64,000 nt of DNA from an uncultured Acidobacteriota bacterium (GTDB lineage: Bacteria; Acidobacteriota; Vicinamibacteria; Vicinamibacterales; UBA2999): the NCBI GenBank assembly GCA_963818645.1, contig CAWFTF010000018.1:136617-200616 (forward strand), given 5' to 3'. Positions within the stretch are counted from its first letter, which is position 1; the number at the start of each line of letters is the position of its first letter. Below are positions 2,869-60,996 of the stretch, piece after piece. The notes under the pieces were generated by a model, which worked only from the letters and a program-made list of their open reading frames with translations, had not been told where the DNA came from and did not search any database. Both the position numbers and the translations under genes were made by a program.

Positions 2869-2938
2869 AATTCAAAATGCAAAAGGCAAAATGCAAATGC
2901 AGCGTTCCCTTTGCATTTTGAATTTTGCCTTTTGCATT
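2869..2938. repeat. Inverted pair of AT-rich heptamer arrays, (AATGCAA)n / (TTGCATT)n
   Basis: aattcaa-aatgcaa-aaggcaa-aatgcaa, a spacer, then ttgcatt-ttgaatt-ttgcctt-ttgcatt. Confidence 0.9.
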
Positions 2939-5052
2939 ACGTCCTGTCCAGTGCTCTTCCAAGCTCACCGGCATCCGTCGTCGGTGCCTCGCATGCGAAG
3001 TCACGACACAGATACGCCGTCGCCCGCCCATCGACCTCCTTCATGCTCGTGGTCCATGGGAGCAACTCGGAAATTCTGGCCCGTGCCGCAGGCGCGAGCG
3101 GAACGACGATGGTCGTCGGGAGATAGCGGTGGATGACGACTTCACGGAGCGCTCTTGTGTCGTCAGCCGATGGGTCGCCGGTGATGACCAACTGGGGTGT
3201 ACCGGCGTGATAGGTGGAGAGCGCAGCCAGCATCATAGGCGCCGCCCGCCCTGACTGCGCGAGCCGCGATGCGAACACGCCAAGCGTGCGCGTAATCTGC
3301 CCCGAAAAATCCCCGACGCCGAGATGCGAGAGCACCAGGAGGTTCATGACGCTCACCGAACTCGCCGCGGGCTCTGCGCCGTCGTAGTCCTCCTTGAGGC
3401 GCAGCAGCACTGATTCGTCCTTGCCCGTCGTGCTGAACCATCCGCCATCGTTCGCATCCCAGAACAACTCGTCCTGGCGCCGCTGCAGTGTGGTCGCCCA
3501 CTCCAACCAGTCTGGATCGCCATTTGCCTGAAACAATTCGAGCAGGCCGAAGATCAAATAGGCATAGTCCTCGGCGTACGCGTCCACACCGGAGGATCCC
3601 TCCCGATAGCGCCTCAGGAGTGTCTGGCTCGACGACTGCCATAGGTGCTCGCGGACGAAACGCGCGGCCTTCTGCGCGTCTTCGAGGTAAGACTCGGCGC
3701 CGTCAATAGTGCGGGCTACGCGTGCAAAGGCCGCGATCATCAGCCCGTTCCATGCAGTGAGCACCTTGTCGTCGAGGTGCGGACGGGGCCGCGACCCCCG
3801 GCGCGCCATCAACAGGGGCCGCGCGCGCCGTAGCGCGTCCATGACTCCTTCGACGGGTCGACCCGTGATCGACGCGACGTCGTCGAGCGATCGGGCCGTA
3901 TAGAGCAGGTTCTTCTCCGTGAACTCGCCCTGGGGATCGTTCGGCGCGTTGCCATCCGGCAGGATGCCGAACCGAGCCCGGAACACCGCGGCATCATCGC
4001 CGAGGACATCCTGAATCTCGTCGTCGCCCCAGATGTAGAACGCGCCCTCCATCTTGTGGGGCCGCGGCTCGTGCGCGTGTTCCGGTGGAACGCTGTCGGC
4101 ATCCTCGGCGGAAAAGAATCCGCCGCCGGGCGAGGTCAGATCGCGTCGGACGTAGTCGAGCGTGTCGAGGGCCACGTCGGCATAGAAACGATCGCCGGTG
4201 ATCTGCGCGGCTTCGGCGAATGCGAGGACGAGCTGCGCCTGGTCGTAGAGCATCTTCTCGAAATGGGGCACGCGCCAGTCGGCATCAACTGAGTACCGGT
4301 GGAATCCTCCGCCGAGGTGGTCGCGCATTCCGCCCAGCGCCATGGCACGCAGGGTCACCAGCGCCATGTCTCGTCGCATTGGCCGCGCCGGTTCGCGCAT
4401 ATTCGCGGAGAAGGAACAACAGCTCGCTCGGCCGTGGAAACTTCGGTGCCCCCCCGAAGCCGCCGCGTCGCGAATCGAACGACGAGGCGAACTCTCCCAC
4501 CGTGCGGCTCAGTACGCCGGCATCGGGTACAGCGTCGGGCCCGCCAGCCGAGCGCATGCTCTGAAGGCGTCCCAGGATCGCCATCGCCGACTGCTCGACC
4601 TTCGGCTGTTCCTCGCGCCAGACTCGCGCGATCTCTTCGAGAATCTCGACGAAGCCCGGTCGTCCCCATCGTGCCTCGGGCGGGAAATATGTCCCGCCGT
4701 AGAAGGGCTCGAGGGTTGGCGTGAGCCAGACGCTCATCGGCCACCCGCCGGATCCGGTCGTGGCCTGGACGAACGTCATGTAGACGCGGTCCACGTCCGG
4801 GCGCTCCTCTCGATCGACCTTGATTGAAACGAAGTAGCGCGAGAGCACCTCGGCAATCACCGGGTTCTCGAAGCTCTCATGCTCCATCACGTGGCACCAG
4901 TGACACGTCGAGTAACCAACCGACAGAAAGATCGGTTTGTTCTCACGGCGCGCCAGGTCGAACGCGTCCTGGCCCCATGGGTACCAGTCGACCGGGTTGT
5001 CCTTGTGCTGGAGAAGATAGGGACTCTGTTCTGCGGCGAGACGATTCGGCAC
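2937..5052 (-). CDS. Thioredoxin-domain protein of the YyaL/DUF255/SPATA20 family (frameshift near 4380)
   Basis: '[24 protein letters not shown]', '[12 protein letters not shown]' and '[25 protein letters not shown]' spread over ORFs 4285-5052 and 2937-4400. Confidence 0.92.
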
Positions 5053-5053
5053 T

Positions 5054-5876
5054 TCAGCGATTATCCCCCGACCGCGAGGTGGTCACGCGGACGAGATGCG
5101 CTTTGACGGATCGATACCGCTCGCTGTCGCGCGTACCGCCCTTCTGTCTCTTCACCTGGGCTGCGAGACTGTCGATGCGATCCTGCGGCGATGGATGGCT
5201 CGAGAGGAAGGCATCGACGCTACTCCGGTCGCGACTCGCCTCTCGTGCGAGCATCTGGAACAACTCGACCATCCCGCGTCCACTCCACCCGGAGCGCGTG
5301 AGGATCGTCATCCCTGCTTCGTCGGCCTCGCGTTCTTCGGCGCGGTTGAACTTCAGAAAGACGCCGCCGGTCAGCACACTGGCCGCGGCCTGCGCAGTTC
5401 CCGCACCGCCGGTGTTGCCGAGTAGTGCCCCCAACAGACCAAGGCCCCACTTCGCGACCATGCCCTGCGTGAGCCGGTCCGCGCCATGGCGCTTGGCGAT
5501 ATGCGCGACCTCGTGCGCCAGAACGGCCGCCACTTGCGACTCGTTCGCCGCCTTGCTCAGCACTCCGCGGTTGATCCACACGGGGCCGCCTGGGAGCGAG
5601 AACGCGTTGATCTCCGGCAAATCGGCAACGGCGAACGTGTATGGATATTTCGCTCCTGGCGCCGCGCGAACGAGCCGCTTTCCGACATCCCGAACGTAAC
5701 GGGTCACCATGGAATCCTTGAACTCTGGCACCTGCTTGCGTACCTGCTCGTTTGCGGTGCGCCCGATTTCGATCTCCTCCTCGACCGACACCAGCGCCAT
5801 GGCTGCCACGCTCGTCGAGGCCACGAACAAACAACCACAAGCCCAGAGCCCAGAGCCTGATAGCCCGCTGTCTCAT
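5054..5876 (-). CDS. M48-family zinc metallopeptidase (BepA/YfgC-like protease domain); 5' end out of frame or starts at TTG 5830
   Basis: 'NAFSLPGG', HEVAH zinc motif, 'EREADEAG', 'FLSSHP'; the ATG at 5876 overlaps the yihY stop and gives a signal-like [15 protein letters not shown]. Confidence 0.85.
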
Positions 5877-6760
5877 GTCCTCGGGCTGGCCGCCGCGGGC
5901 ATCGTCTCGGTTCGATGCCGACGGAGTCGCGCGTACGCCGCCGTGAACTCTACGCCGTACATCAGGATGACTGACGAGATGTAGATCCAGAGCAGGAAGA
6001 CGACGACGGTAGTGATCGACCCGTGAATCATGCTGAGTCGCTGGTTCTGGCGGACGTACCACGAGAAGCCCGAGAGCGCGACTCGCCACAGCAGCCCGGT
6101 CAGGATGGCGCCAACCCACACGTCGCGAAACCGCGTGCGTGCGTTGGGAATGAAATAGAAGACAAGGCCGGTGCCGACCATCAGGAGCACCATCGCCAGA
6201 TACCTGAACACGAATGTCTGCAGTGCCACGAACCACGGTGCGCCGGCCAGCAGTTGCCCGACGCGCGACGTCTCCGCCACCTGAATGAAGCTGACGACGA
6301 CCAACGCCACGGCCATGGCCACCGTCGCTGCCACCAGCAACAGGAACGATACGAGTCGATGCTTCCAGAAGCTTCGCTGCTTCTCGACTCCCCAGGCCTC
6401 GTTTACGGCACTCGTGACCGCACCGAAGAACCCGAGTGATGCCCACACAAGCCCGAGCCCGCCGGCCACACCGATGCGAATGCTGTCCGCACGAAAGGCG
6501 TCCAGCTGGTCGGTCATGAAGTCGAGCCGCGTCGGGAAATAACGGAAGATGAAACCGAGGACCCGCGCCCGGTCGTCTTCATCAGCCGTCACGACTCCAA
6601 GGATTGAGAGGAGGAGGAGGAGAAACGGAAAGAGCGACAGCAGCGAGTAGTACGCGATCGAAGCGGCGTGCGTCAGGTCGTTCCTGCTGACGAGCCCGAT
6701 CAGGGCCCGCCACGCGGCCTGTCCCCAGAGACGCAGTTCGCGGCGTAGTGGACGCCACAA
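5873..6760 (-). CDS. YihY/virulence factor BrkB family membrane protein
   Basis: 'AASIAYYSLLSLFPFLL', 'LLWIYISSVILMYGVEF', multiple transmembrane segments. Confidence 0.9.
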   Translation of the reverse strand: MWRPLRRELRLWGQAAWRALIGLVSRNDLTHAASIAYYSLLSLFPFLLLLLSILGVVTADEDDRARVLGFIFRYFPTRLDFMTDQLDAFRADSIRIGVAGGLGLVWASLGFFGAVTSAVNEAWGVEKQRSFWKHRLVSFLLLVAATVAMAVALVVVSFIQVAETSRVGQLLAGAPWFVALQTFVFRYLAMVLLMVGTGLVFYFIPNARTRFRDVWVGAILTGLLWRVALSGFSWYVRQNQRLSMIHGSITTVVVFLLWIYISSVILMYGVEFTAAYARLRRHRTETMPAAASPRT

Positions 6761-11926: not shown

Positions 11927-12196
11927 GTGAGCGAGAAGGTTCCCGCAGAGATCGCGGCGATTCTCACCGAGTTCGTCGAGAAGGTGGGACTGCTGCGCCG
12001 CGACATGCAGCACAAGAAGGAACTCGAGAAGTACGAGGCCCGGATGCAGCGCATCGAGCAGAAGCTCTCCGCGCTGGCCGAGCGAGTGTCAGTGGACGAT
12101 CCGGATCTCGCCAAGGCGATACGGACCGCGTGGCAAATGCCGGCCCGCAGCCTCGCGTTCCGGAACGCCACGCATCAAAAGCCGGAGGGTGGTTAG
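11927..12196 (+). CDS. Hypothetical helical protein (89 aa)
   Basis: Coiled-coil-like ORF directly after the BCCP gene, with typical codon usage. Confidence 0.65.
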   Translation: MSEKVPAEIAAILTEFVEKVGLLRRDMQHKKELEKYEARMQRIEQKLSALAERVSVDDPDLAKAIRTAWQMPARSLAFRNATHQKPEGG

Positions 12197-12266
12197 TGGT
12201 TGGTGGTCAGTGGACAGAACCGAACGCTGAACTTAACCACCCACCACCTACCACCATCCACCAACC
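12188..12266. repeat. Inverted pair of heptamer arrays, (RGTGGTT)n / (nACCACC)n, between convergent genes
   Basis: ggtggtt-agtggtt-ggtggtc-agtggac ... aaccacc-caccacc-taccacc-atccacc. Confidence 0.8.
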
Positions 12267-12269: not shown

Positions 12270-12746
12270 TTAGCCTTTGGGCCCCACCGTCTGATTCGAC
12301 AAGTAGCGCTCGTACCCCATCTCCTTGATCTGATGGAGCTGCGCCTCGAGCCAGTCCACGTGCTCTTCCTCGTCCTTCAGAAGCTTCGAGAACAGCTCGC
12401 GTGACTGGTCGTCACCGGCGTCGCGCGAGATCTGGACGGCCTTGTTGTACATCGCGACGGCGTTCGTCTCGAGCTGGAGGTCGGCTTCGAGTTGATTCTT
12501 GACGTTCGTGCCGACCTTGAGCTCCATGTATTCCATCGTCGGCGTGGCGTCGAGGAACAGGATGCGCTCGATGAGCTCTTCGGCGTGCTTCATCTCGTCG
12601 ATCGACTGCTTTCTGATGAAGTCGCCCAGGCCGTGATAGCCCCAGTTGTGACACATCTCCGCATGCAGGAAATACTGGTTGATCGCCGTCAGTTCTTCCT
12701 TGAGTGCGTGATTGAGCTGAGCGATGACCTGAGCGTTACCGCGCAT
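12270..12746 (-). CDS. bfr: Bacterioferritin
   Basis: 158 aa, 'ELTAINQYFLHA', 'SIDEMKHA..LIERILFL', 'DEEEHVDWLE'; SD AAGGAGG upstream. Confidence 0.96.
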   Translation of the reverse strand: MRGNAQVIAQLNHALKEELTAINQYFLHAEMCHNWGYHGLGDFIRKQSIDEMKHAEELIERILFLDATPTMEYMELKVGTNVKNQLEADLQLETNAVAMYNKAVQISRDAGDDQSRELFSKLLKDEEEHVDWLEAQLHQIKEMGYERYLSNQTVGPKG

Positions 12747-12894
12747 TAATGCCGCCTCCTTTGCGCGTGTGCCGATCACACAGCGCGGGGACATCGTACG
12801 CTGAACAATGCCCGCGGCTCAAATAGCTGAGTATCCTGCGACTGCGACTCGCTCTCACAACGGTCGAGTCTCCTCCCTGCCGTACAATCGATCC

Positions 12895-13503: not shown

Positions 13504-13529
13504 GAACTCCGTTGGGAGTTGGGCGTTTC

Positions 13530-16500
13530 CTAGAACGTCTGTCCGATTCCGAAGACCCATCGTCCGGTGTCGGCGACAGGCCGATTCCAGATGGTCTTCC
13601 CGTAATCCACGCGGAACAACGCGAACGGCGTCACAAGGCGCAAGCCAAATCCTGATGACCCTACGAGATCGCCGAGACGCACATCGGAGACCGTGGGAAA
13701 GACGTTGCCCGTGTCGATGAACACCACACCCCGAAGCCATCGATAGACCGGAAACCGCACCTCCTGGTTCAACGTCAGCAGCCCGCGGCCCCCGACGGGG
13801 TCTCCGTTGAAGTCGAGCCCTCCGAGGCTGTCTTCGGGCACGCCCCTGACGGTGCGGGCACCACCTGCAAAGAAGCGCAGATCGGAGACCAGCGCCTGTC
13901 CCTCGAGCGGCTTGACGGCACCGTATCTCGCCGCAGATGCGAGGACGACCCTTTTCCAGGGCCTGAAGTAATAGGCCTGTGTGAGCGACCTCAGGAACAG
14001 CAGATCGGAGTTGAGCAGTGCTGTGCCGTGCTCGAGGCTGGTGGAGACAAACGTCCCGCGCGTGGTGTCAGACGGATCGTCGCGCGTGTCCCATGTGGCA
14101 CTCGACGTGAAACGGCCGATGTGGGCCGTGACGTCGAACGCGAAATCCGGATCGCTTGGCTGAGTATCGAACGTCCGGTTTCGCTCGGAGCGAAGCCCGT
14201 ACGACAGCGTCAGCTTTCTTCCATCGGCCACGCTGCTCCCACGCCGCCGTCGTGCGATTGGTCACGAGAGTGTCTATGCGTGACTCCTCACGCGATCGCT
14301 CGAGCGTCAATGACGACTGCACGGAACGTCCGAAGAATGTCGGCGTGCTCACGAATACGCGACCGAGTCGCTCGAGGCTTTCGTACTGCGCGGCGGCGCC
14401 GACGGTGATCGCACGTCCGAACAACGTGCGGCGCGTCAGGTCGCCCGACACGCCCGGGACGAGGTCGCGCCCGTTGACGTTTTCTTCCGGCCGCTCTTCA
14501 GAAACCTGGAAGCCGTAGCGCAGGCGCAGCGCCGGCCACTCCTCGACGGTGACGCGAAGACTGACGGGCGCGGTATCGGCCGCCCCCTGCTGCGGTTCGA
14601 CCGCGATATCGACGCGTCTGAACAGACCACTCTCGAAGAGGCGGCGGCGGGCATCGAGCCAGTCGTCCGTTCGCAGTCCGTCGCCAGCCTTCAAGCGCAC
14701 GGTTCGTCTGACCACCTCTTCGTTGACCGACTGCAGGCCGCTGATCGTGATCTCCTGGATGACCTGACGCGGGCCTTCCTTGACCGCAAAGATCACGTCG
14801 ACGAGGCCGTCAGCGGCGCGAACGTTTTCGCGCGCCTCGAACGAGGCGGCCGTGAAGCCTTCGCGCCGATACCGCGTCTGCAATCGCATCCGCGCTGTCT
14901 CCACGTCCGCGGCGCGATACAGCGCGCCCTTCTCGAGCGCGGCTTCAGCCTGCAGATCCTCCACCTTGACGCCGTTCGCCCGCTCGAAGGTCACGTCGCC
15001 GATGCGGAATTGCGTGCCGGCCTTCACTGCCACCGGAACCGTCGCCACTTCCTCATCGAACATCGGGACGCCGACGCTCACGGTCGCCTGCGGATATCCC
15101 AACGAATGCAGAACGGCGAGCACCATGCGCTCGTATTCGGCCGGGCTGGTGAGCGCCTGCACGGCCTGTGTCCGGTCGCCCGCTCGATCGACGAGTTCCT
15201 TCTTCAACTTGTCGTCGACACCCTCGAAGCGCACTTCGATGCGATCGGCCCGCGGCGTCGGCGTCACGTCGATGACCAACGTGCGGACGGCCTCGTCGCC
15301 TTCGACCTTCACTGCGAGCATCGGCTCATACGTGGCCTGCAGGGCGAGCTCACGCCGGACGATGCCCTCCGCTTCCTCGATCAGGAATCCTTCGAACACA
15401 GACCGCGTCCAGGCGGTCTGAATTTCCTCGAGCACGCTCCGGCGAAGCGAGACGCCCATGACACGAACATGTGTCTCGGGCCCGGCGTCGATCGTGTACG
15501 TCAACTCGACGCCCGCACCCGACTCGGCTCGATTCGTGGTGATGCGGGCCGCCCAGTGCTGTTGACGCTGATAGAAGCGCTCGATCCGGTCGCGATCCTC
15601 CTGCCAGTTGATGAAGTCGAATCGATCGCCCTCGTTGAGGCGAAGCACGCCGCGCACCTGCGTCTCGGGGAAATGGAGGTCTCCCATCACGCGCACCGCC
15701 GACACATGCGGCTGCTTCACCTCGCGTGAGGCGTCGCCGGACCGAACCGCGTTGGGCGCGTTTCCGAAGGTCACGTCGTGGCGGAACTCGTACGACCGCA
15801 GTTCCTGGTCGTCCTGGACAAATCGCAGCGCGATTCGACGGACCGGCAGATAGTCGACGATCCACGTCTGCTCGTTGCTCTCGACGAGGCTCTGCGACAG
15901 CGTGACGTCAACTTTGTGGCCCAGGCTCTTGCCGAAGGTGACCCGCGAAGTCGGGTCGGTCTCGGACGCCAGGTCGGCTGGATCGCGTGGATTGGTCTCC
16001 ACGCCGCCGAAACGAAGCGTGTCGAGACCTACGCTACGCCCGGCGACGCCAAGAACATCGCCAGCAAGACTGCCGAGCACCTGCGCTCCGACGGCGGCGG
16101 CCTGTTGTTCCCCAAGTTCATCCATCTTCCGGCCCGTCAGCAGCAACGAGGTCAGCTCGGACTGCGACTTGTCGAGCTCCGGATCGGAGGGCGAGCTCAG
16201 CTCCGTCATCAGGCTGTCCGGCGTGCCAGTGATGCGGATGTCGATGTCGGTGCCCGACACTCTGGTCGACGCCTCAATGCCGAGCATCGGTTCGATCGTC
16301 GAGGGATTGGCAAAGTCGATCGTCCCGTTCTGAACGACGTAGACATTCCGGCCGAGGAAGAGCTGACCACCTTCTCGCAACTCCAGGCGACCGGAGAGCG
16401 CGGGCGACGCAGCCACGTTGATCAGCCGCAGGTCGGCACCGAGCTGTGCCTTCGCGACGTTGTTGTCGATCAGCAGGTCCTCGTCCGTGATCACGCGAAC

Positions 16501-22620: not shown

Positions 22621-22653
22621 GCAGATCTACTTTAGCGCAGGGGGCTTACGCGG

Positions 22654-22688
22654 GGCTCTCGACTCTGGGCTCTGGGCGTTGGGCGTTG
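22654..22688. repeat. Heptamer array (GGCTCTG/GGCGTTG)x5
   Basis: ggctctc-gactctg-ggctctg-ggcgttg-ggcgttg. Confidence 0.8.
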
Positions 22689-22692
22689 GACA

Positions 22693-23973
22693 TCACGCCA
22701 CCGGTTTGAAGTACTCCGGAAGATCGCGTTTGGTCTCGAGCAGGATCGAGATAATCGCCTTGCGATCTGCCGGAGCCAGGCCCTTGTAGCGAGGAGACAT
22801 GTCCTTGCCGGACAGCACTTCCCAGAGACGCGAGTAGACCGCGCTCTTGGCTGCCGGCGGAAGGGCATCGAATGCCGGCGTGTAGATCATGTAGCTGCAC
22901 GGATACTTGAACAGCCGGCGACGCAGATCGAACTCGCGCAGCGAACGGCCCTGGCCATCGCGCGGGCCTCTGGCGACGAACGACTCGGCGAACCCGGACG
23001 TGCCTTTCACCACGCCTGTCAGCGGCGCCTCGTCCACAAAGAGCATGTAGTCGACGAGGTCGCGTGCGGCCTCGGTGACACGCGTCGAGGCGGCCTGGCT
23101 CGGCGATGCTGCGGCCAGCCTCGCTTCCCATCCTGTGCGCGTGATCAGGTTCGTCATGTTGGCCTGATGGTCGATGACGAGCAACGCCACGACATCGCTG
23201 TACGGAGCGGCGTACCCCTTCAGGTCGAAGAGTCCGTCGAGCGACGGCAGCGCGCGCGTCGGAGCTGCCAGCTTCGATCCCTTGTCGTTGTACATGACCG
23301 ACACGTTGCCGATGTGCTTCGCGCCGCCCGGATCGCCGGTCACCCACCATCCACCCCAGCGCTGTTCGAGCGGACTGCCGTGAACGGTCGTGAAGCCGTT
23401 GGCGTACGAGTTTTCGTCGCGCAGGGGATAGACGCTCTGCACCATCAAGCCGGGAACGCCCAGCGTCTCCCACGACAAGTGACATGCGAGGCACTCGTTG
23501 CTGCGCTTGAAGGCCGGCTTCGCTCCGGCATCCTGTGCGACCTCATAGAAGACAACGCCCTGCGACGGATCCTGTGAGGCGACTTCGATGATCTTGGCGC
23601 CGCGGATGTATCCGACTGCGACCGTGTCGTTGAAGAACACGGCACGCGGGTTGTGCATCCGGATGAGCGACGCCTGGAAACTGGTCTGCGAGAAGACCAT
23701 CATCTGCGACTCGACAGGCACGTTCAGCGCGTCGAGCACCGACCGGAGGTAACCCGTGGACTCGTCGTACTTCAGCGTCGCCGCCCCGTTGGCGAGCCTG
23801 GCGTTGAGCGCCGATACCGCGTCCGACGTCGCGCCAGTCGAATAGGCGATGGCCGGGTGATCGCGCGACTCCACGTAAGCGTCGCGCCGCTGGGCAACGG
23901 CCAGCAGGCTGCAACCGAAGATGGCGGCCACGACGAGCAGGAGAAGAGATGGAACCCGGGCTGGAGGAGCCAC
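22693..23973 (-). CDS. Secreted hypothetical protein with a single CXXCH motif (possible c-type cytochrome)
   Basis: Signal peptide, 'ECLACH', 'RWGGWWVTG', 'SLREFDLRRRLFKYPCSYMIY'. Confidence 0.75.
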   Translation of the reverse strand: MAPPARVPSLLLLVVAAIFGCSLLAVAQRRDAYVESRDHPAIAYSTGATSDAVSALNARLANGAATLKYDESTGYLRSVLDALNVPVESQMMVFSQTSFQASLIRMHNPRAVFFNDTVAVGYIRGAKIIEVASQDPSQGVVFYEVAQDAGAKPAFKRSNECLACHLSWETLGVPGLMVQSVYPLRDENSYANGFTTVHGSPLEQRWGGWWVTGDPGGAKHIGNVSVMYNDKGSKLAAPTRALPSLDGLFDLKGYAAPYSDVVALLVIDHQANMTNLITRTGWEARLAAASPSQAASTRVTEAARDLVDYMLFVDEAPLTGVVKGTSGFAESFVARGPRDGQGRSLREFDLRRRLFKYPCSYMIYTPAFDALPPAAKSAVYSRLWEVLSGKDMSPRYKGLAPADRKAIISILLETKRDLPEYFKPVA

Positions 23974-29885: not shown

Positions 29886-29897
29886 TGGTCTCGACGC

Positions 29898-34979: not shown

Positions 34980-34998
34980 TGACTCTCCCAAGGTGGCT

Positions 34999-35014
34999 TG
35001 GCACTGCCGGTGCA
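34999..35014 (+). promoter_or_regulatory. Putative sigma-54 (-24/-12) motif upstream of the four-helix-bundle gene
   Basis: TGGCACTGCCGGTGCA has GG-N10-GC spacing and a TGGCAC core. Confidence 0.5.
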
Positions 35015-35021
35015 TCGATTC

Positions 35022-35399: not shown

Positions 35400-35443
35400 G
35401 TGGTTGAGAGTTGGAAGTTGAGAGTTGAGGTTTTTGGGAGTTG
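35400..35443 (+). repeat. Heptamer array (GRAGTTG-like, about 6 units), reverse complement of 34875-34979
   Basis: gtggttg agagttg gaagttg agagttg aggtttt tgggagttg, starting directly after the TGA stop. Confidence 0.85.
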
Positions 35444-35445
35444 AC

Positions 35446-36375
35446 ATGAAGAAGTTAGGACTCGCGCTGGTTGGACTCGGCCTGACAGCAATCGGGGTGT
35501 GGGCGCAGGAAAAGCAGCCTGAGCCGTCGCCCGCTTTTGAAGTTGCGTCAGTCAAGCCGAGCAGCTCGAATACCAGCAGCCCTCTCGGCGCGATTCCGAT
35601 GGTCATGCCCGCCGCCAATGGCCGGTTCACGGCGACGAACGTCCCGCTGCGTCTGCTCGTGCGCATGGCATACGGCGTCCAGGATTTTCAGATCGACGGT
35701 GGCCCGTCGTGGCAAATGTCGCAGCGCTTCGACATCACCGCCAAAGCTGAGGACGGCTCCGCGGCAACGATGCAAGCGTTGCTTCCAATGTTGAAGACGC
35801 TGCTCGCCGATCGCTTCAAGCTGAAGGTGCACACTGAAACGAGAGAGCTGCCGGTCTTTGCGCTCGTCATCGCTAGAGAAGATGGGAAGTTGGGGCCGAG
35901 CCTCAGACCGTCCACGTCTGATTGCTCGAGCGCGCAGGCGGAAAACCAGAAGCTCGCCGAAGCGTTCGCCAGGGGTGGCCCCGGTGCGTTGGCCGGAATG
36001 CTTCCGAAGCCGGGTGAGACGCGGAAGTGCGCGATGATGCCGTCAATGGGTGCGGGCGGTTTCGGAATGAAAGCGGACGGACAGCCGCTGTCGGCGATGG
36101 TTCAACTCCTCACACAGGCCACGGGGCGGGTCGTCACCGACAAGACGGGCCTGACGGGTCTGTACGACTGGGAGATCAAGTTCGATCCACAGGTGCTCAT
36201 GCAGATCGCATCGCAGGTCGGTGTCAATTTGCCCGCCGGCGCGAACCTTCCGGCGTCGGACAACCCGTCACTCCTGACCGCCCTGCGCGAAGACCTTGGG
36301 CTCAAGCTCGAATCCGAACGCGGCCCCGTTGAGATTCTTGTCATCGACAGCGCTGAGATGCCCGAAGCGAATTAG
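35446..36375 (+). CDS. TIGR03435 family secreted protein (Acidobacteria paralogous family)
   Basis: 'AFEVASVKP', '[12 protein letters not shown]', '[11 protein letters not shown]', 'L.LGLKLE....VEILVID'. Confidence 0.92.
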
Positions 36376-36381
36376 AACAAT

Positions 36382-36484
36382 TTGGGAGTTGGGAGTTGGC
36401 GTTCTTGGGAGTTGGCAGTCAGGAATTGGGCGTTGGGAGTTGGGCGTTGCGAATTGGGAATTGGGCGTTGGGAAGTTGGGAGTT
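36382..36484 (+). repeat. About 14-unit heptamer array (TTGGGAG/TTGGGCG)n
   Basis: ttgggag ttgggag ttggcgt.. ttgggag ttggcag tcaggaa ttgggcg ttgggag ttgggcg ttgcgaa ttgggaa ttgggcg ttgggaa ttgggag. Confidence 0.95.
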
Positions 36485-36550
36485 AACGCAGGAGCAAGTA
36501 GTACTTCCCCACTATTGCCCCCTACCTGATCCGACCAGTACAGTCGCCCG

Positions 36551-37114
36551 GTGGCCCACATTCCGCTTCCTGAGGGCGCCACGGGAATCCGTGCGCTGTT
36601 TGCGTTCCGCCCCGAATCGGCCCAACCGATGGCCGACCTGGCGAACACCTTGCTCCATGCACCCAACTCGCTGACACCCGGCGAGCGTGAACTGATTGCG
36701 GCATACGTCTCGTCGTTGAACGACTGCGCCTTCTGCCTCGATAGTCATGCGGCGATCGCGTCGTGTCACTTCGGCAACGACGAGGGGCTCGTTCACTCTG
36801 TCGTCACCGATCCCGCGACCGCGGAGATTTCGGACAAGCTGAAGGCGCTCCTCCACATCGCTGCACGAGTCCAGCAGAGTGGCTCGCTCGTGCGCCCAAT
36901 CGACGTCGAACGCGCGCGCCAGCAGGGTGCGAGCGACGTGGAGATCCACGACACGGTGCTCATCGCTGCGGCCTTCTGCATGTTCAATCGTTACGTCGAC
37001 GGTCTCGGCGCGGGAGCATCCAGCGATCCCACGAGCCTGCGGGAACGCGCCCGGCTCGTCGCCGAGCACGGCTACAGCATCTCTCTCCCGCAACCGCCGA
37101 CCCTGGTAGCGTGA
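36551..37114 (+). CDS. AhpD/carboxymuconolactone decarboxylase family peroxidase-related protein
   Basis: '[22 protein letters not shown]' (ExxxxxxSxxNxCxxCxxxH) and '[12 protein letters not shown]'. Confidence 0.9.
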
Positions 37115-38055
37115 CTCCTCCTCCATCCTTCGCCTGGGACGACTGGTACGCGCTCGTCGGCGGCCGCTCGATCCGCATCGAAGAGGTCGATGACATCCTT
37201 CGCCAGATTTACAACGACCAGTACGCGCGATTCGAAGGTGAGGTCGCAGACTCCCGAGTCGAGTTCGACTCACCCGCTGAAGCCTCGCGTCACCTGAAGG
37301 ACAAGGCCACTGAGTTCGGCGCCGACATCGTCGGCATCTGCGAGATCGAACCGACGGACGTCTATCGCGGCCGGGTCGTAACCGAGAAATACGCGATTGC
37401 GGTGGGCCAACGCATGCGGTGGCGCGAGTTCCAGGTGGTGCCGTCGCGCGAGTCTGCCATCGAGTGCCTGCGCGTCTACTACACACTGGGCGAGACGGTC
37501 ATCAAGCTGGCGACGTATCTGCGATCGATCGGCTACGCCTGCAAGATAGAGCATCCGATCGGCGACAGCGACCTGCTGCACATCCCGATCGGGCTGAAGG
37601 CCGGCTTCGGCGAGCTCGGTCGGCACGGCTCCATCATCAATCCCACGCTCGGACCGCTCTTCCGCATGGGCAGCGTCGCGACATCGATTCCGCTCGCAAT
37701 CGACCATCCTATCGACGCCGGTATCGCAAAGTTCTGCGACGCCTGTCGCGCGTGCCGGAAGTTCTGTCCGGCGGACGCGATTCCGGACGAGCGCACTCCC
37801 GAAGCTGGCAAGGATCATCTCGGCTACGACCGCTACGTCATCGACACTGGCCGCTGCTTCCCCTACTTCGCGAAGCATTCGTACTGTTCGATCTGCTTGC
37901 CGGTGTGCGCCTACAACCACAAGGAGTGGGCGAAAGACTTCGACGGCTTTCACACGAAGCTGTTTCCCAATGTCCTGATGCCTGACGCCCCTGCGCCGGT
38001 TGATCTGCTGCAGGACCAGCCGCGGCATTTCTACGCGAGGATTCATCGCCCGTGA
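37111..38055 (+). CDS. Reductive-dehalogenase/QueG-like cobalamin plus 2x[4Fe-4S] protein without Tat signal
   Basis: 'LKDKATEFGADIVGI', 'AGFGELGRHG.II.P.LGP.FR..SV.T..PL..D.PID.G...FC', CDACRACRKFCP and RC-x9-CSICLPVC; GTG overlaps the upstream stop. Confidence 0.82.
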   Translation: MTPPPSFAWDDWYALVGGRSIRIEEVDDILRQIYNDQYARFEGEVADSRVEFDSPAEASRHLKDKATEFGADIVGICEIEPTDVYRGRVVTEKYAIAVGQRMRWREFQVVPSRESAIECLRVYYTLGETVIKLATYLRSIGYACKIEHPIGDSDLLHIPIGLKAGFGELGRHGSIINPTLGPLFRMGSVATSIPLAIDHPIDAGIAKFCDACRACRKFCPADAIPDERTPEAGKDHLGYDRYVIDTGRCFPYFAKHSYCSICLPVCAYNHKEWAKDFDGFHTKLFPNVLMPDAPAPVDLLQDQPRHFYARIHRP

Positions 38056-50694: not shown

Positions 50695-51468
50695 ATGAAA
50701 ACGCTCCTCTTGTCGGCCTCCCTCATCGTCTTGGTGGCGGCCACGACGCTCGACGCGCAGTGGGATCCGTATCCGTGGAAGAACATGCCTCGGACTCCCG
50801 ATGGCAAAGTCGACATGAACGCGCCGGCGCGCAGGACCGCTGACGGCAAGCCCGATCTTTCCGGCTTCTGGATGCCGGTGGAGGCCGTCAAACATCTTCT
50901 GAATCTCGCCGCAGATTTGAAGCCAGGCGAGGTGCCGTTGCAGCCCTGGGCGGAGGCGCTCTACAAGGAACGCATCGAGAACAACGGGAAGGATCACCCC
51001 GGTGTGCGGTGCTGGCCCTCTGGCATCCCCGAGAAGAACAACATCCCGGACGGCCTCAAGGTCGTGCAGACACCGGACGTGATGATCGTCCTGCACGAGT
51101 CACGCACGATTTACCGGCAGATCTTCACCGATGGCCGCCCACTCCCGAAGAACGCACAGCCTACCTGGATGGGGTACTCCATCGGCCACTGGGAAGGCGA
51201 CACGTTTATCGTCGAAACGATCGGACAGAACGGCAAGACCTGGCTCGATATGCGCGGCCTGCCCGGCACCGAGTCGCTCCGCGTGATCGAGCGTTTCACC
51301 AGGCCCAACATCGGGCGCATCAACATCAACGTCACGATCGACGATCCCGCGGCGTATACGAAACCGTGGGACGTGCAACTGGCGTGGCGGCTCGTCCCTG
51401 ACACGGATCTCATCGAGAGCATCTGCGAAGAGAACAACAAAGACCTGCCGCACATGGTGGGCAAGTAG
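50695..51468 (+). CDS. Secreted conserved hypothetical protein (paralogue of 29082-29885)
   Basis: 'DGKPDLSGFW', 'RCWPSGIP', 'RQIFTDGR', 'GYSIGHWEGDTFIVET', 'ESICEEN'. Confidence 0.85.
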   Translation: MKTLLLSASLIVLVAATTLDAQWDPYPWKNMPRTPDGKVDMNAPARRTADGKPDLSGFWMPVEAVKHLLNLAADLKPGEVPLQPWAEALYKERIENNGKDHPGVRCWPSGIPEKNNIPDGLKVVQTPDVMIVLHESRTIYRQIFTDGRPLPKNAQPTWMGYSIGHWEGDTFIVETIGQNGKTWLDMRGLPGTESLRVIERFTRPNIGRININVTIDDPAAYTKPWDVQLAWRLVPDTDLIESICEENNKDLPHMVGK

Positions 51469-51469: not shown

Positions 51470-51517
51470 CCGGGGCCCGGGATTCGGGATTCGGGATTCG
51501 GGGTTCGGGATTCGACG
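51470..51517 (+). repeat. Heptamer array (TCGGGAT)n, about 7 units
   Basis: ccggggc ccgggat tcgggat tcgggat tcggggt tcgggat tcgacga right after the stop codon. Confidence 0.9.
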
Positions 51518-51557: not shown

Positions 51558-52952
51558 ATGAGATCAATTGTGAGAACATTCGCCGGCCTCGCGGCCCTCG
51601 TGCTTGCCACGAGCGTCCTCGTGGCGCAACAGAACACGACGGTGCCGCAGCCGCGCGCAGGCGCACTGCCCGCGCCTGCAACGGCAAGCCCGAAACCGAG
51701 CCGCGCGGTCTCGCGCCCCGAAGGCATGAGCCCGAAGGCGGCGAACGGCTTCACCGTGACGATGGCCGCCGATCTTCGCGCGCCACGCATGATGGTGTAC
51801 GCGCCGAACGGCGATCTGTTCGTCAGCTCACCCGGTGCGAACAACATCACCGTGCTGCGCGACGCGAACAACGACGGCGTGTTCGAATCGCAGAGCGTAT
51901 ACGCGCAGGGCGCGCCTCCTGCCCCGCGCGGCGGCGGTCCGCCTCCTAACCCTGCTGGCGGCCAGCGTGCAGGCGGACAGGGTCGGGCGGCCGGTCCGCC
52001 GCCAGGCCCCGGACGCGGCGCTCCGCCTGTTCTCGGCGCGGGCGCGCCGGCATGCACACCACCACCCGACTTCGCTGTGAAGGGCCCCGGCACACTCGCG
52101 GCGCCGTTCGGACTCGCCTTCCATGACGGCTATCTCTACGTGGGCAACACCGCGTCGCTCGTTCGCTACAAGTACACGAATGGCGATCTGCAGGCGCAGG
52201 GCGAACCTGAGAAACTGCTCGACCTGCCGAACGGTGGTCACTCCACTCGCAACATCATCTTCAATCGCGCAGGCACGAAGATGTACATCGCTGTCGGCTC
52301 GCAGTCCAACAACGACGCGGGCGAAGACTGCCGGCGCGCCGCGATCCTGGAGTTCAATCCTGACGGTACCGGATATCGCGTGTACGCCTCGGGCATCCGC
52401 AATCCGGTCGGTCTCGCGTTGCAGCCCGACACCGACATTATCTGGACCGCGATGAACGAGCGCGACAACCTCGGCGACGATCTCGTGCCCGATTACGCCA
52501 CGTCAGTGAAGGACGGCGGCTTCTACGGCTGGCCGTACTCCTATATCGGGGAGAACTACGACCCGCGCTACATCGGGTCGTTCCCCGATCTCGTCAAGCG
52601 CACCATCGTTCCGGACGTGCTGCTGCCGGCACATGCGGCGGCGCTCGGCATCACGTTCTATACCGGCAACCAGTTCCCGCAGCGCTTCCGCAATGGCGGG
52701 TTCGTCGCGCTGCATGGATCGTGGAATCGATCGGTCGCGTCGGGTTACAAGGTGGTGTTCTTCCCGATGGTCAACGGCAAGCCGGGACCGATCGAAGACT
52801 TCCTGACTGGCTTCCTGGCGAGCGATGGAGCGAACGACACGTCGATCGATCAGTGGGGTCGGCCGGTTGGTGTGACCGTCGCGCGCGACGGCTCGCTGCT
52901 CGTGTCTGACGACACCGGCAACCGAATCTGGAGAGTCAGCGCCGCGAAATAG
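51558..52952 (+). CDS. PQQ-dependent sugar / L-sorbosone dehydrogenase family beta-propeller with a Pro/Gly-rich insert
   Basis: 'GIRNPVGL', 'NERDNLGDDLVPDY', 'FYGWPY', 'HGSWNRS', 'GRPVGV...DGSLLVSDD'. Confidence 0.9.
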   Translation: MRSIVRTFAGLAALVLATSVLVAQQNTTVPQPRAGALPAPATASPKPSRAVSRPEGMSPKAANGFTVTMAADLRAPRMMVYAPNGDLFVSSPGANNITVLRDANNDGVFESQSVYAQGAPPAPRGGGPPPNPAGGQRAGGQGRAAGPPPGPGRGAPPVLGAGAPACTPPPDFAVKGPGTLAAPFGLAFHDGYLYVGNTASLVRYKYTNGDLQAQGEPEKLLDLPNGGHSTRNIIFNRAGTKMYIAVGSQSNNDAGEDCRRAAILEFNPDGTGYRVYASGIRNPVGLALQPDTDIIWTAMNERDNLGDDLVPDYATSVKDGGFYGWPYSYIGENYDPRYIGSFPDLVKRTIVPDVLLPAHAAALGITFYTGNQFPQRFRNGGFVALHGSWNRSVASGYKVVFFPMVNGKPGPIEDFLTGFLASDGANDTSIDQWGRPVGVTVARDGSLLVSDDTGNRIWRVSAAK

Positions 52953-52964: not shown

Positions 52965-53033
52965 AACTCCCAACCTCCAACTTCCAACTCCCAAGAAAAA
53001 CTGAGCACTAATTGGAATTGGAGTTGGGAGTTG
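52965..53033. repeat. Inverted pair of heptamer arrays, (AACTCCC)n / (TTGGGAG)n
   Basis: aactccc aacctcc aacttcc aactccc ... ttggaat tggag ttgggag ttg, between convergent genes. Confidence 0.9.
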
Positions 53034-53039
53034 ACGTGA

Positions 53040-53477: not shown

Positions 53478-53552
53478 AACTACCAACTCCAACTTCCAAC
53501 TCCCAAAAGAACGCAGAACGATTGGGAGTTGGGAATTGGAATTTGGGAGTTG
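53478..53552. repeat. Inverted pair of heptamer arrays, (AACTYCC)n / (TTGGGAR)n
   Basis: aactacc aactcc aacttcc aactccc ... ttgggag ttgggaa ttggaat ttgggag ttg. Confidence 0.9.
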
Positions 53553-53553: not shown

Positions 53554-55455
53554 TCACCGTGCATCCTGAAGCGTCTGCGCGATTGCGAGACTCGCCCAGC
53601 TCGTGCCCGCTGTCGAGATCCACTGATGTCGTCCGTAGGGGAATCCGCTTTCGAAATATCGCTGCACGGGGAACGAGTGCGTCCTCACCAGCCACGTCCC
53701 ATCCTGATACTGCGTGCCGAGCAGGAATGCGACACCCTTCTTGTATGTGTCGTCGGTCGCCGCGATGCCAGCACTGTGCAGTGCATAGAGGGACAGGCCA
53801 GTCGCGTAGGCATCAGGTGGCGTGCGACCGAATTGTGACCAGCCGCCGCCCGCTTCCTGCTGGTCGCGAACAGCCTTGATCGCATCGGCGACCTGCGCGC
53901 GAGAGGCGTCGGTCCATACCAGGCCCATCAGGCGCATCGCGCGTTCCTCGGCCGACTTCGGTTGCGCCGCCAGCAGCCAGCGTCGCGCGAGCCGCAGGCT
54001 GTCCTCGACCTCGCTCTTGCGACCAGGAAGCGGATACGACTTCAACCCACCTGCCGCGATCGCCGTGTGGGTGATGAGGCTGTATTCCGACGGCGGACGA
54101 TTGAGCCCGTTGCCAAGCCAGCGGCCGTCGGGCATCTGCCGCGCCATCAGCCAGTGCGTCATCGCACCGGTGGTGACGTCGAGCGGGTGTCCCTCACCGA
54201 GCAGCGCCATCTGCGCGTAGCCAGTGGTAATCGCTTCGCCGCCCACGGCCGGGTCACCGACCATCATGCGCGGGACAGCGCTCGTGAAGAACGTGAGGAT
54301 ATCGTTGAGGTTCTTCTTCGCCCTGACCTCGTCGATCTCGATCCCCTTCCGTCTGGCCGTTGCGGCCGCGAGCGCCGGCATCGCGTTGTGATGGCAGGAA
54401 ATGCAGGTGGCCTGATCGCGGAATTTCGGTGCCACCTCGGTCAGCCTCGACAGGCTGCGGCTGAGCGAGGTGCGCGCGTCGCTGATCCCACCAGTCGCCG
54501 GCGGTGCGATCTCCTCACGACGCGGTCCACGACCGCGCATCGCGCCGTACTGCTCGAGCACCTGGATCTTGGCGCGATCGCCTTTGTAGATCGCCCAGTC
54601 GAGCGGCCGCTCCCCTTCGGTCATCTCGGCATTGGGGTCCGCGCCCTTCTCGAGCAGCAGCTTCAACGTGTCGGCGCCTTCAGACTCCGACGTCACCGCG
54701 TTCATCAGCGGCGTCCGCGCGTACTGTTGCGGGAGGCTCGCGTTCACGTCGGCACCGAGTTCGATCCAATGCGCCACCACGTTCGCCGGTTGCCACGTGG
54801 CCGCAGTCCCCAGCAGATCCTGATTGGGAGTCGGGGCCTTCGACATCACGTAATCGGTGGTCGGCAGATCGTTGCGCGCAAAGCCGGCTCGACGCGAGCC
54901 AGCGGGCAGTGCATTCAGATCCAGCCCACGCTCCACGAGAAAACGGACGACGTCGACATCCGCTGAACGCACGGCGAGCGCGAGCGCCGTCGCATTCGCA
55001 CGGTCCTGCGCGCGGATATCGGCACCGCGATCGAGCAGCAGCCTCAAAACGTCAACGGTGCGGGGGTAACTCGCCGCAACGAGGAACGCTGTGCGATCGG
55101 TCTCCGAGCGCGCGTTCACATTCGCGCCGTGCTCGAGAAGCACGCGCACCTTTTCGACATTCGGAACGGCCCACATCAACGCGGTGGTACCGCCGGCTCC
55201 TGCTCGATTCGGATCCGCACCGCGTTCGATCAGGAGCTTCACGAGGGCGGTGTCGCCGAAGAGGGTCGCCGCCATCAGCGCGGGCGTGCCATCGGCATCG
55301 ACGATGTTCGGGCTGGCGCCGGCCTTCAGGAGTCGATCGGTGTCAGCAACGGAGCCGCGTCGGATGGCGGCAAAGAGCGCGTCACGCGAGGGATCGGTTT
55401 GCGCCGAAACCGCGGCGGTGAGCACAACGAGGAGCACGAGTCGTAATGACTGCAT
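53554..55455 (-). CDS. Secreted ankyrin-repeat plus prenyltransferase/squalene-cyclase-repeat protein with CXXCH
   Basis: Several ankyrin repeats ('GTTALMWA', 'GADPN'), 'CISCHH', QW-like motifs 'QMPDGRW', 'QEAGGGW', 'QYQDGTW'. Confidence 0.85.
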   Translation of the reverse strand: MQSLRLVLLVVLTAAVSAQTDPSRDALFAAIRRGSVADTDRLLKAGASPNIVDADGTPALMAATLFGDTALVKLLIERGADPNRAGAGGTTALMWAVPNVEKVRVLLEHGANVNARSETDRTAFLVAASYPRTVDVLRLLLDRGADIRAQDRANATALALAVRSADVDVVRFLVERGLDLNALPAGSRRAGFARNDLPTTDYVMSKAPTPNQDLLGTAATWQPANVVAHWIELGADVNASLPQQYARTPLMNAVTSESEGADTLKLLLEKGADPNAEMTEGERPLDWAIYKGDRAKIQVLEQYGAMRGRGPRREEIAPPATGGISDARTSLSRSLSRLTEVAPKFRDQATCISCHHNAMPALAAATARRKGIEIDEVRAKKNLNDILTFFTSAVPRMMVGDPAVGGEAITTGYAQMALLGEGHPLDVTTGAMTHWLMARQMPDGRWLGNGLNRPPSEYSLITHTAIAAGGLKSYPLPGRKSEVEDSLRLARRWLLAAQPKSAEERAMRLMGLVWTDASRAQVADAIKAVRDQQEAGGGWSQFGRTPPDAYATGLSLYALHSAGIAATDDTYKKGVAFLLGTQYQDGTWLVRTHSFPVQRYFESGFPYGRHQWISTAGTSWASLAIAQTLQDAR

Positions 55456-60194: not shown

Positions 60195-60899
60195 TTCTTC
60201 AACTCCGATGTCACTCCGCCCGGGAGGGGAAACTCGTCGACCACCATCATCATCGCGACCAGTTGATACGCACCGAGCGTGCCGACGAGATCCACCACGC
60301 CGCGATCGCCACCGAGCACTTGCCTCGCCGCCTGCAGCGTCGCGTCGCTCACGCGCTTCTTCGTCAGAAGTTCGTTGCAGAAGTCGTACACCGCAGCCAC
60401 GTCGGGCGTCATCTGCTGCCGGACGGCGTCCATCACGCACGCCCACGATCACCGCTTCGGGCAGCCCCGCGCGCTCCGCCGCGCGTCGATGCACGTACCA
60501 CGCGTAGTGCGCGGTCCACGCTCGCGCGCCCATGATGATCGCGAGCTCAGACAGCTTCGGCGGCACAACCGAGTACCCTTCGCGACCGGCGAAGCGCGAA
60601 TAGGCGATCGTCTTCTGCGCGAGGTCCGCGAACACCGGGCTGGCAATCATGACGCCGAGCGACCCGCTGATGTCAGGCCTGGGTCCGCTCAGCACGCTCT
60701 TGACGAACGCCTGCTGCTCCGTCGTCATCGCGTCGTAGGACGCAGGCCGCGGGATGCGCCCACCGCGGAGATCGGCAACCGCCTTCCGCATCTGCTCGAC
60801 CGTCGGCGTCTGTGGCTGCCCGGCCTGCGCCGCGACCATCACCACACCGGCCGTCACGGCAGCGCCAACGAGACCTGCGACGATCAGCTTGAAACGCAT
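60191..60899 (-). CDS. Carboxymuconolactone decarboxylase family protein with signal peptide; frameshift near 60430
   Basis: 'LSELAIIMGARAW...YAWYVH...A..AG', then 'VSDAT', 'GVVDLVGTLGAY'. Confidence 0.8.
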
Positions 60900-60965
60900 C
60901 TCTCCCCCAGACTGTCCTTCGGAGTGAAACCAGCGAGGCACGCGAATGATAACGCCGCGCTCGCC

Positions 60966-60996
60966 TTGGGAGTTGGGAGTTGGAGATTGGCAGTTG
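60966..60996 (+). repeat. Heptamer array (TTGGGAG)n in a divergent promoter region
   Basis: ttgggag ttgggag ttggaga ttggcag ttg. Confidence 0.85.

Follow-up and report, generated by a model that had tools for sequence, protein, structure and literature searches.

Small dispersed palindromes, such as repetitive extragenic palindromes and bacterial interspersed mosaic elements (REP/BIME) and miniature inverted-repeat transposable elements (MITEs), are found in 3′ and intercistronic spacers. Other intergenic repeats are built of tandem seven-base units. Arrays of GGGAATC in Xanthomonas and of GGGGAYT in Nostoc/Anabaena, mostly of four units, are described as strain-variable, with some inverted pairs (Rehm et al. 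2015, PMC4692102), and the short tandemly repeated repetitive (STRR) sequences of Calothrix PCC 7601 comprise several unrelated tandem heptanucleotides dispersed in non-coding DNA, their function being given as unknown (cited in PMC4692102). TAACTGA repeats of marine Beggiatoaceae, cyanobacteria and some Bacteroidetes, two to six units mostly directly upstream of start codons, are direct repeats with one inverted set reported, and their patchy occurrence across phyla is taken there to suggest horizontal spread by an unknown mechanism (MacGregor 2015, PMC4679880). Both the over-representation of heptamers and the idea of a polymerase footprint are credited to Mrazek (2007, as cited in PMC4679880 and PMC4692102). 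Intervening sequences (IVSs) of 23S rRNA have a different build: that of Coxiella burnetii is 428 nt long, holds the S23p open reading frame (ORF) and has a 28-bp terminal stem cut by RNase III, and ORF-bearing IVSs, sporadic and taken as horizontally transferred, are suspected to be selfish or once mobile, with no known mobility enzyme in the account consulted (PMC4990558). Here we analyse a 64,000-nt stretch (the window) of contig CAWFTF010000018.1, from a metagenome-assembled genome (MAG) of a soil bacterium of the order Vicinamibacterales (Acidobacteriota), whose spacers carry many arrays of period 7, one inverted pair of which encloses a four-helix-bundle gene of the '23S rRNA intervening sequence protein' family (PF05635).

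The arrays are intergenic heptanucleotide simple sequence repeats, with head-to-tail 7-nt units, an excess of period 7 and variation between relatives, and are thus a known kind of repeat in a new host. Like the Xanthomonas and Nostoc repeats as described (PMC4692102), they show an intergenic excess, typically run to about four units, vary in length and sequence at the same spacer and include inverted pairs; the genome also has a family with G3 tracts, CGGGATT, whose (CGGGATT)5 array at 51478 has a G3-N4 pattern by sequence alone, most other host families having no G tracts. Unlike those repeats, they occur in an acidobacterium, their dominant unit, AACTCCC, is not G-quadruplex (G4)-forming, half of them are hairpin pairs with, for AACTCCC, a fixed arm order, and arms also enclose PF05635 genes. 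The comparison with cyanobacterial STRR that an earlier, sequence-only reading of the window had drawn is apt, as several unrelated tandem heptamers are dispersed in the non-coding DNA of one genome; the host belongs to another phylum and probably has other units, and its arrays add hairpin pairing, stop-codon placement and a cassette link to STRR as described. With the TAACTGA repeats (PMC4679880) they share intergenic abundance and a patchy distribution across phyla, but they follow stop codons and half of them are inverted pairs. The window cassette resembles ORF-bearing IVSs in having a PF05635/S23p gene of about 120–125 codons in the loop of complementary termini. It differs in that it lies between an FG-GAP/ASPIC and a DUF3738 gene, not in helix 9, 25 or 45 of 23S rRNA, in that its arms are tandem 7-nt repeats, and in that gene-less versions far outnumber gene-bearing ones. 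As with REP/BIME, there are hundreds of short hairpin elements in 3′ and intercistronic positions, enriched between convergent genes and assumed to be transcribed with the upstream gene; unlike REP/BIME, the consensus is limited to the repeat unit, loops are unrelated, unit families are many, arms are periodic, and no RAYT-type or other transposase was identified.

The excess of 7-base tandem repeats in several phyla has so far had only a guess at polymerase slippage as its explanation, and ORF-bearing 23S IVSs have been without known origin or function since the 1990s; this genome shows both puzzles together. In a literature search that left subscription journals mostly, and supplementary repeat tables, outside its reach, we found no paper linking PF05635 genes with heptamer arrays, and no publication for arms that enclose these genes, for clade-specific heptamers, for the polarity of AACTCCC hairpins (50 of 50) or for the contrast between genomes with and without the gene family (6 of 8 against 0 of 7). 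Three features exceed what has been published, namely the hairpin design, the fixed polarity and the connection with the IVS gene family, and they yield a specific, testable hypothesis for the 7-base register.

Period-7 arrays in the window and the genome

Tandem Repeats Finder (TRF) assigned 16 of its 51 rows in the window to period 7, 2 to period 6 and 1 to period 8; the period-7 rows start at 2869, 2910, 5840, 12189, 12235, 22653, 22673, 31147, 34875, 35403, 36382, 51478, 52965, 53478, 53522 and 60966. A further pair, at 13505, is below the detection length of TRF and visible by eye and by pattern search. With at most two mismatches allowed, the two-unit GGGAGTT pattern GGGAGTTGGGAGTT matched the window 31 times against 0.19 expected, a count that none of 100 shuffles reached. 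The units belong to unrelated families, of AACTCCC, AAAATGC, AACCACC, AGAGCCC and AATCCCG types. At 12 of the 13 loci a stop codon is no more than 15 nt away, as read from the ORF list and the sequence, the exception being that at 60966. Compact inverted pairs at 2869, 12189, 31147, 52965 and 53478 fold with free energies (ΔG) of −30 to −46 kcal/mol (z −3.6 to −7.6); single arrays fold no better than shuffled sequence. No Rfam family matched anywhere in the window.

The host assembly (called G000) comprises 3.93 Mb in 29 contigs with 63.5% G+C, and placement was judged with a crude gene model made for this analysis (3330 genes, 87% coding). Genome-wide, TRF returned 924 rows of period 7 at a score of at least 30, against 186 of period 6, 196 of period 8 and 7 of period 5; the contrast sharpens to 491 against 12 (period 6) and 20 (period 8) at a score of at least 40, and to 177 against 4 and 8 at a score of at least 50. 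Periods 14 and 21 are raised too. The rows represent 186 canonical heptamers, led by AACTCCC (185 of 924), ACTGCCT (55), AATCCCG (54) and AACCACC (30). Among 647 arrays with a score of at least 36, 494 count as intergenic, with no more than 20% of coding overlap; 116 fall inside called genes and 37 extend across a gene end. Their density per kilobase is 1.75 in convergent, 1.13 in tandem and 0.52 in divergent spacers, and in tandem spacers the median array lies 17 nt from the upstream stop and 49 nt from the next start.

Pairing is a property of the population as a whole. Neighbouring arrays at most 150 nt apart are inverted in 101 cases and direct in 4, mostly with spacers of 8–30 nt, and 323 of the 647 arrays have at least two reverse-complement units within 120 nt, compared with 4 and 27 in two controls. 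The tendency varies by family: 117 of 153 AACTCCC arrays are paired, as against 5 of 52 of the AATCCCG (CGGGATT) type. Pairs 150–1600 nt apart are not enriched around ordinary genes (35 inverted versus 27 direct, genome-wide). Canonical terminators and promoters around arrays are at chance level: between 29 and 38 kb of the window there are 7 consensus intrinsic-terminator sites for 6.1 expected and none at arrays, the hairpins lacking a T tract.

These results bear out most of what the sequence-only reading had claimed for the window. TRF recovers the arrays where it placed them (the pair at 13505 by pattern search), the enrichment of period 7 extends to the whole genome, the unit families it put at about five are unrelated and prove to be a small part of the 186, and most arrays do lie at stop codons. 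The outcome that it had named as refuting, no enrichment of period 7 over periods 5, 6 and 8, did not arise. Five compact gene-less hairpins fold strongly, but the small pair at 13505 does not (z −0.7). Its statement that the period is always 7 holds in the host lineage and fails in a genome of another family of the order (G165), which has mainly period 8 in the same hairpin design.

A PF05635 gene enclosed by heptamer arms

The left, C-rich arm of the cassette, (CAACTTC/CAACTCC)n at 34875–34977, abuts the TAG stop of the FG-GAP/ASPIC gene (33165–34874). In the loop, on the plus strand at 35022–35399, lies a gene for a 125-aa protein that matches PF05635 (7.4e-09, 36.2 bits for a cut-off of 33.8) and TIGR02436 (1.1e-13, 51.3 bits for a cut-off of 24) and whose nearest solved structure is PDB 2RLD (5.5e-14). 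The right, G-rich arm, (GTTGAGA/GTTGGAA)n at 35403–35445, ends in GGGAG, 5 nt short of the ATG with which the DUF3738 gene starts (35446), and so supplies that gene with a Shine-Dalgarno-like motif. Complementarity of the arms is indicated by pattern search (minus-strand unit matches at 34876–34973, plus-strand at 35406–35426).

The cassette is one of a series. G000 has seven PF05635 matches, three of which look truncated or frameshifted, and six of the seven are enclosed by inverted arrays of short units, with a different unit at each. The protein has 1380 homologues, mostly of 125 aa and many on very short contigs; close ones are on contigs named Vicinamibacterales, Vicinamibacteria or Acidobacteriota. 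By alignment we found 44 loci of the window gene clade in named genomes and examined 24, of which 19–20 are enclosed by inverted arrays, all with the CCAA-type arm first and the TTGG-type arm second. In 16 loci the arms are AACTCC[C/A], several with GTYAAC...GTTGAC ends. Four loci have unrelated neighbours (for example FKBP, aldehyde dehydrogenase with MatE, and COX2) and are therefore not orthologous to the window site. A second clade, homologues of the C7 gene (37–49% identity), is enclosed in 10 of 12 cases by arrays of 7- or 8-nt units, nearly all with GATTG, and Bacteroidota homologues (32–43% identity) in 7 of 8 by CCAAAAT/TTTTGGA-type arms. Because CCAA/TTGG, GATTG and CCAAAAT arms each mark their own clade, the arm type follows the gene clade, an association that the sequence-only reading had proposed to look for.

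A locus elsewhere in G000 (G000:C12:183800-185800) holds the genome's best-scoring PF05635 match between 74-nt arms that are 82% complementary and built of GGTCCGA/GAGGGTC-like units; long spurious ORFs read through it. On a contig from a lake MAG labelled Acidimicrobiia, an actinobacterial class, a gene 77% identical to that of the window cassette has AACTCCC arms; this copy reflects either a binning error or transfer between phyla.

The order of the arms is intrinsic to a hairpin, because a sequence followed by its reverse complement reads identically on both strands. By our own count of the listed matches, the C-rich arm comes first in all close AACTCCC pairs, 26 of 26 in G000 and 24 of 24 in G003, a close relative, and throughout the AACTCCC hairpins and the cassette of the window. 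Other families keep an order of their own: GGTGGTT leads at 12189 and GATTG in the second gene clade. Hairpins that arose locally and independently should show both orders, and copies of a common source a single one.

It had been suggested that the gene-less hairpins are empty versions of the cassette. For AACTCCC the idea stands in so far as these hairpins share their unit, arm order and GTYAAC...GTTGAC ends with the cassette at 34875–35445 and its relatives. It does not extend to the CGGGATT family, rarely paired and without a cassette in this genome, nor to a fresh array in G003 (below), which is single, unpaired and without a gene. The ORF between the hairpins at 52965 and 53478, considered as a second four-helix-bundle gene, is not one: it matches no family and has the look of an ordinary membrane protein.

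Distribution and turnover among relatives

We surveyed 151 sampled genomes of the order for three AACTCCC units with at most two mismatches, a search whose reversed-pattern control stayed near zero. Matches occur in 22 genomes, scattered over 7 of the 19 sampled families, the heaviest carriers being G061 (188), G000 (169), G159 (73), G038 (56) and G104 (51). The window gene clade exceeds 100 bits only in G000, G061, G087 (partial) and G030. PF05635 genes of any clade are present in 108 of the 151 genomes, with 1–17 matches each; families f10 (12 genomes) and f12 (11 genomes) have none.

The presence of the gene family and of period-7 arrays was compared in 20-kb TRF samples at a score of at least 36, which are small and come from related genomes (four and five families). 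None of seven PF05635-free genomes (G027, G150, G047, G063, G035, G033 and G069) showed a genuine period-7 array in its 20 kb; in G047 one period-7 row consists of G and C only and one array has period 8, and G069 has a 2.2-copy period-8 row. Six of eight PF05635-bearing genomes have such arrays, counting this window with its 15 period-7 rows in 64 kb: G043 has four in two pairs, G097 four plus two, G103 five, G038 one, and G165 two, together with about nine of period 8, paired. By a one-sided Fisher test the contrast has a p of about 0.006, which rises to 0.03 when the period-8 array of G047 is included, for genomes that are related. The array-bearing cases include long single-contig genomes of the order. 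As the arrays of G165 are mostly of period 8, the register differs between lineages. The sampled stretch of that genome (G165:C1:100001-120000) has hairpin pairs of the 8-nt units CAGGAGAT/CTCCTGAT and ATTGGCAG/AATCTGCC, and CACGACGA (×12).

Between close relatives the arrays turn over rapidly. Identity to the window is 91–94% in G003 over the compared parts and 73–82% in G014, G005 and G012. In G003 the hairpin at 31147 differs by one substitution and that at 53478 is kept with substitutions and small indels; the arrays at 34875, 36382, 51478 and 52965 differ by multi-unit indels, with about 110 nt more in G003 at 36382 and 25 nt more in the right arm at 52965. The cassette gene has about 95% identity. 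G014 keeps the 31147 site with diverged units and has a single C-rich array past the FG-GAP gene. Past the gene at 50695–51468, G000 has (CGGGATT)5, G003 two to three units, G005 a 14-nt spacer without an array and G014 an unrelated CCTGGTT/CTTCGTT array; the CGGGATT array starts in a local CCCGGG motif that is also present in the array-free relative. Past the gene at 51558–52952 there is an AACTCCC hairpin in G000 and G003, none in G005, and in G012 an AGGAATC array with an inverted partner. G014 is without about 2.2 kb of G000 and G003 (window 34875–37114) that comprise the PF05635 cassette, the DUF3738 gene and a CMD-family gene; arrays flank this stretch in G000, a C-rich one on its left side and a G-rich one on its right.

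One array is fresh. G003 alone has a 57-nt insertion (L002:9651-9707, corresponding to window 37114/37115) between genes that overlap (GTGA) in G000, and the insertion is the derived state because G012 and G001 are contiguous at that point. It combines 20 unique nucleotides with four TTGGGAG-type units and TTGATG, and creates a GGGAG motif and a new ATG: the recent birth of an array, which rewires translational coupling. There is no clear target duplication at this single fresh insertion, and the 20-nt part has no other copy in G003 or G000.

Two metatranscriptome and two DNA runs were mapped on 29000–38000; all consist of contigs, so that RNA ends and levels are invisible. One RNA-library contig continues past the end of the gene (34873) into an abbreviated form of the array and a second ends at 31138, from which we conclude nothing. 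Joints that skip 34951–35408 or 34947–36382 were dismissed as variants of this locus: their sides are only 18–25 nt long and lie in repeats, and they most likely come from other loci or organisms.

Origin of the arrays

We favour, at a probability of about 0.5, the explanation that the arrays form one genome-wide population of short-period hairpin elements that spread by copying, with the cassette as the full form. The population numbers about 650 arrays at a TRF score of at least 36, of which the window shows a sample. Its members have a PF05635 gene in the loop (full), an empty loop of 8–30 nt (common) or no partner (single arrays), and the full form has the same build as ORF-bearing 23S rRNA IVSs. 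Elements lie behind stop codons, are gained as blocks, change length by several units and are replaced within the genus by unrelated heptamers. In the mechanism that we propose, cassettes and gene-less relatives would spread by copying, which would give each family its fixed unit, arm order and end motifs and leave a patchy distribution across the order; arrays would then lengthen and shorten by slipped-strand mispairing and remain in 3′ and intercistronic spacers, where their harm is least. Transcribed paired forms would yield RNA stems of 25–35 bp, which may be substrates of double-strand RNases or structures that protect 3′ ends, and G-rich arms can give a GGGAG ribosome-binding motif to the next gene. 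The register of 7, or 8 in some relatives, would be set by a protein footprint, for which a PF05635 oligomer is the obvious candidate and our preferred guess. The protein or the cassette may make or move arrays.

Several observations weigh against the copying of elements as just outlined. The elements have no recombinase, transposase or reverse transcriptase associated with them; the assembly has no RVT_1 domain by profile search, and we reject a reverse-transcriptase origin of the arrays on that account. Unit, arm order and GTYAAC...GTTGAC ends recur, but no sequence is common to the loops of gene-less hairpins. We see no gradual series of decay leading from the cassette to the empty hairpin, inverted pairs at 150–1600 nt being hardly more frequent than direct ones, and no donor element was found for the G003 insertion, as its 20-nt part is without a second copy. 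G159, G038 and G104 are rich in AACTCCC arrays although the window gene clade was not found in them at more than 100 bits, and G159 is without any PF05635 match (in a fragmented assembly, 96% complete); because the arrays are abundant in such genomes, they need no cognate gene present now, and their dependence on one is at most putative. The PF05635-bearing G079 and G028 show no arrays in 20 kb, and the 20-kb samples are small and the genomes related. With 186 canonical heptamers, and CGGGATT-like families mostly unpaired and without a cassette here, much of the population is unlike the full form. The RNA evidence consists of metatranscriptome contigs, blind to RNA ends, and an RNase III gene was not found in the possibly incomplete host assembly. 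Domains of RNase III (PF14622, PF00636) and MutS domain I are not found in G000 or G003; both occur in 14 of the 18 genomes of the genus and in every one of 12 further genera sampled (unpublished G009 included). As G000 (3.9 Mb) is much smaller than its relatives (4–8.7 Mb), we treat both as likely assembly gaps. Loss of mismatch repair is rejected as a cause, MutS_I being present in the array-bearing G012 and G014.

A possible rival, which we hold at clearly less than even odds, dispenses with any element or factor: the lineage favours slippage in 7-nt steps, arrays arise locally, partners form by template switching, selection keeps useful 3′ stem-loops (terminators without a U tract, barriers to 3′ exonucleases), and PF05635 genes lodge or survive best inside them. 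It can draw on the printed heptamer over-representation and polymerase-footprint idea (as cited in PMC4679880 and PMC4692102), and it suits the unit-number indels between genomes 91–94% identical, the unrelated heptamers in the same spacer of sister species, the start of the CGGGATT array in a local CCCGGG, the 186 heptamers, the arrays in genomes without the cognate gene clade, and a 3′-end role for strong folds past stop codons. What undirected origin leaves unexplained is that 50 of 50 AACTCCC hairpins have one arm order, that AACTCCC makes up 185 of 924 rows and recurs in scattered families, and that clade-specific arm types persist from Acidobacteriota to Bacteroidota. Nor does it account for the seven of seven PF05635-free samples without arrays, whose replication machinery is presumably similar, for the arrival of the fresh G003 array as a block of 57 nt of which 20 nt are not repeats, for period 8 in some relatives, or for terminator-like sites at chance level. 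The sequence-only reading had likewise argued from constant period and divergent sequence for one generating or reading mechanism rather than random slippage. That part is upheld, as period 7 with such divergent units is far from undirected slippage and periods 5, 6 and 8 are not enriched in the host; a role of the gene as maker or reader of arrays found no support, and the register itself is 8 in some relatives.

Arrays might also be kept as regulatory platforms, every 7-nt unit serving as a module for binding in single-stranded RNA or DNA. Rho would load on the C-rich, G-free arrays past stop codons, cold-shock-domain proteins would sit one per heptamer on arrays in general, G3 arrays would form G-quadruplexes, and G-rich arms would hide or expose GGGAG ribosome-binding motifs for translational coupling. 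The array at 34875 would indeed give about 100 nt of G-free, C-rich RNA directly past a stop codon, and the genome has a gene for Rho; GGGAG stands 5 nt before the ATG at 35446 and again before the new ATG in G003; CGGGATT resembles the G4-forming GGGAATC and GGGGAYT of Xanthomonas and Nostoc (PMC4692102); and heptamer binding by CspB is discussed in PMC4679880. We nevertheless consider this unlikely: orthologues in sister species have no array or an unrelated one, which speaks against a conserved gene-specific role, no single factor would suit units so varied, and half of the arrays, being paired, would not be single-stranded. An assembly or polishing artefact of the MAG might be suspected, as such repeats break short-read assemblies, many cassette-gene homologues are on very short contigs and depth piles up on arrays when soil contigs are mapped on the window. 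It is refuted for practical purposes, because the same arrays are at the same sites in independently assembled relatives and a 243-nt contig from an independent soil DNA run spans 31046–31288 with one difference; arrays are also present in long single-contig genomes of the order.

A bolder form of the copying explanation, in which PF05635 proteins are register-specific partners of their own arms, with a 7- or 8-nt unit particular to each clade, and cassettes and gene-less hairpins make up one self-spreading, cross-phylum class that is the common cause of the heptamer excess and of the origin of 23S IVSs, seems to us doubtful. If the link were causal, it would name a protein to test for the 7-base register and delimit a large class, so far without a name, of small dispersed elements with an influence on 3′ ends and operon spacers. 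In practice, arrays break assemblies and alter ribosome-binding sites, which matters for the annotation of soil metagenomes.

Further arrays of the window

At 2869–2938, an (AATGCAA/AAAATGC)n arm, an 8-nt loop region and an inverted (TTTGCAT)n arm (TRF 2869–2901 and 2910–2938) form a hairpin (ΔG −31.5, z −6.3) whose right arm overlaps the stop codon of a minus-strand gene (2937–4400). A short single array, (AGCCCAG)2.6 at 5840–5857, separates two minus-strand genes and is 15 nt away from the stop of 5873–6760. The hairpin (GTGGTTA)n...(AACCACC)n at 12189–12266 (ΔG −35.7, z −3.6) lies between convergent genes; its first unit holds the TAG stop of 11927–12196 and its right arm comes to 3 nt from the stop codon of a ferritin-like gene (12270–12794). 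The minimal AACTCC/GGGAGTT pair at 13504–13530, whose fold is not significant, occupies a 26-nt spacer between the convergent stop codons of a TPR gene and an Omp85-family gene. A single composite array, (GGGCTCT)n(TGGGCGT)n at 22653–22689, is 3 nt from the stop of the minus-strand gene 22693–23973 and has no stable fold (z −0.3).

Three AACTCCC-type hairpins lie at 31147–31228 (C-rich arm first; 8 nt past the stop of a cupin gene, 30680–31138; ΔG −45.6, z −5.8), at 52965–53035 (C-rich arm first; between convergent genes; ΔG −30.3, z −5.4) and at 53478–53552 (abutting the stop of the minus-strand gene 53554–55455; ΔG −36.3, z −7.6). When soil and rhizosphere contigs were mapped on the window, depth rose 10- to 100-fold exactly over AACTCCC arrays (31107–31407 and 34719–35019), so that many other loci or organisms in these soils must carry the repeat.

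The remaining arrays are single. A long G-rich one, (TTGGGAG/TTGGGCG)n at 36382–36484, begins 6 nt past the stop of the DUF3738 gene (z −0.2), and (CGGGATT)5, with its G3 tracts, follows directly on the stop of 50695–51468, at 51470–51514. Between 36500 and 51400, about 15 kb of densely packed genes are without any period-7 array; the flanks have one per 2–5 kb. The G-rich (TTGGGAG)n array at 60966–60996 (z +0.4) lies in a divergent spacer, the only one in the window away from stop codons. About 57 nt downstream of it, on the plus strand at 61053–61334, is a 93-codon ORF missed by the gene model, with a good AGGAGG motif and a signal-peptide-like start (MKRLVVLGILFSAGALS...).

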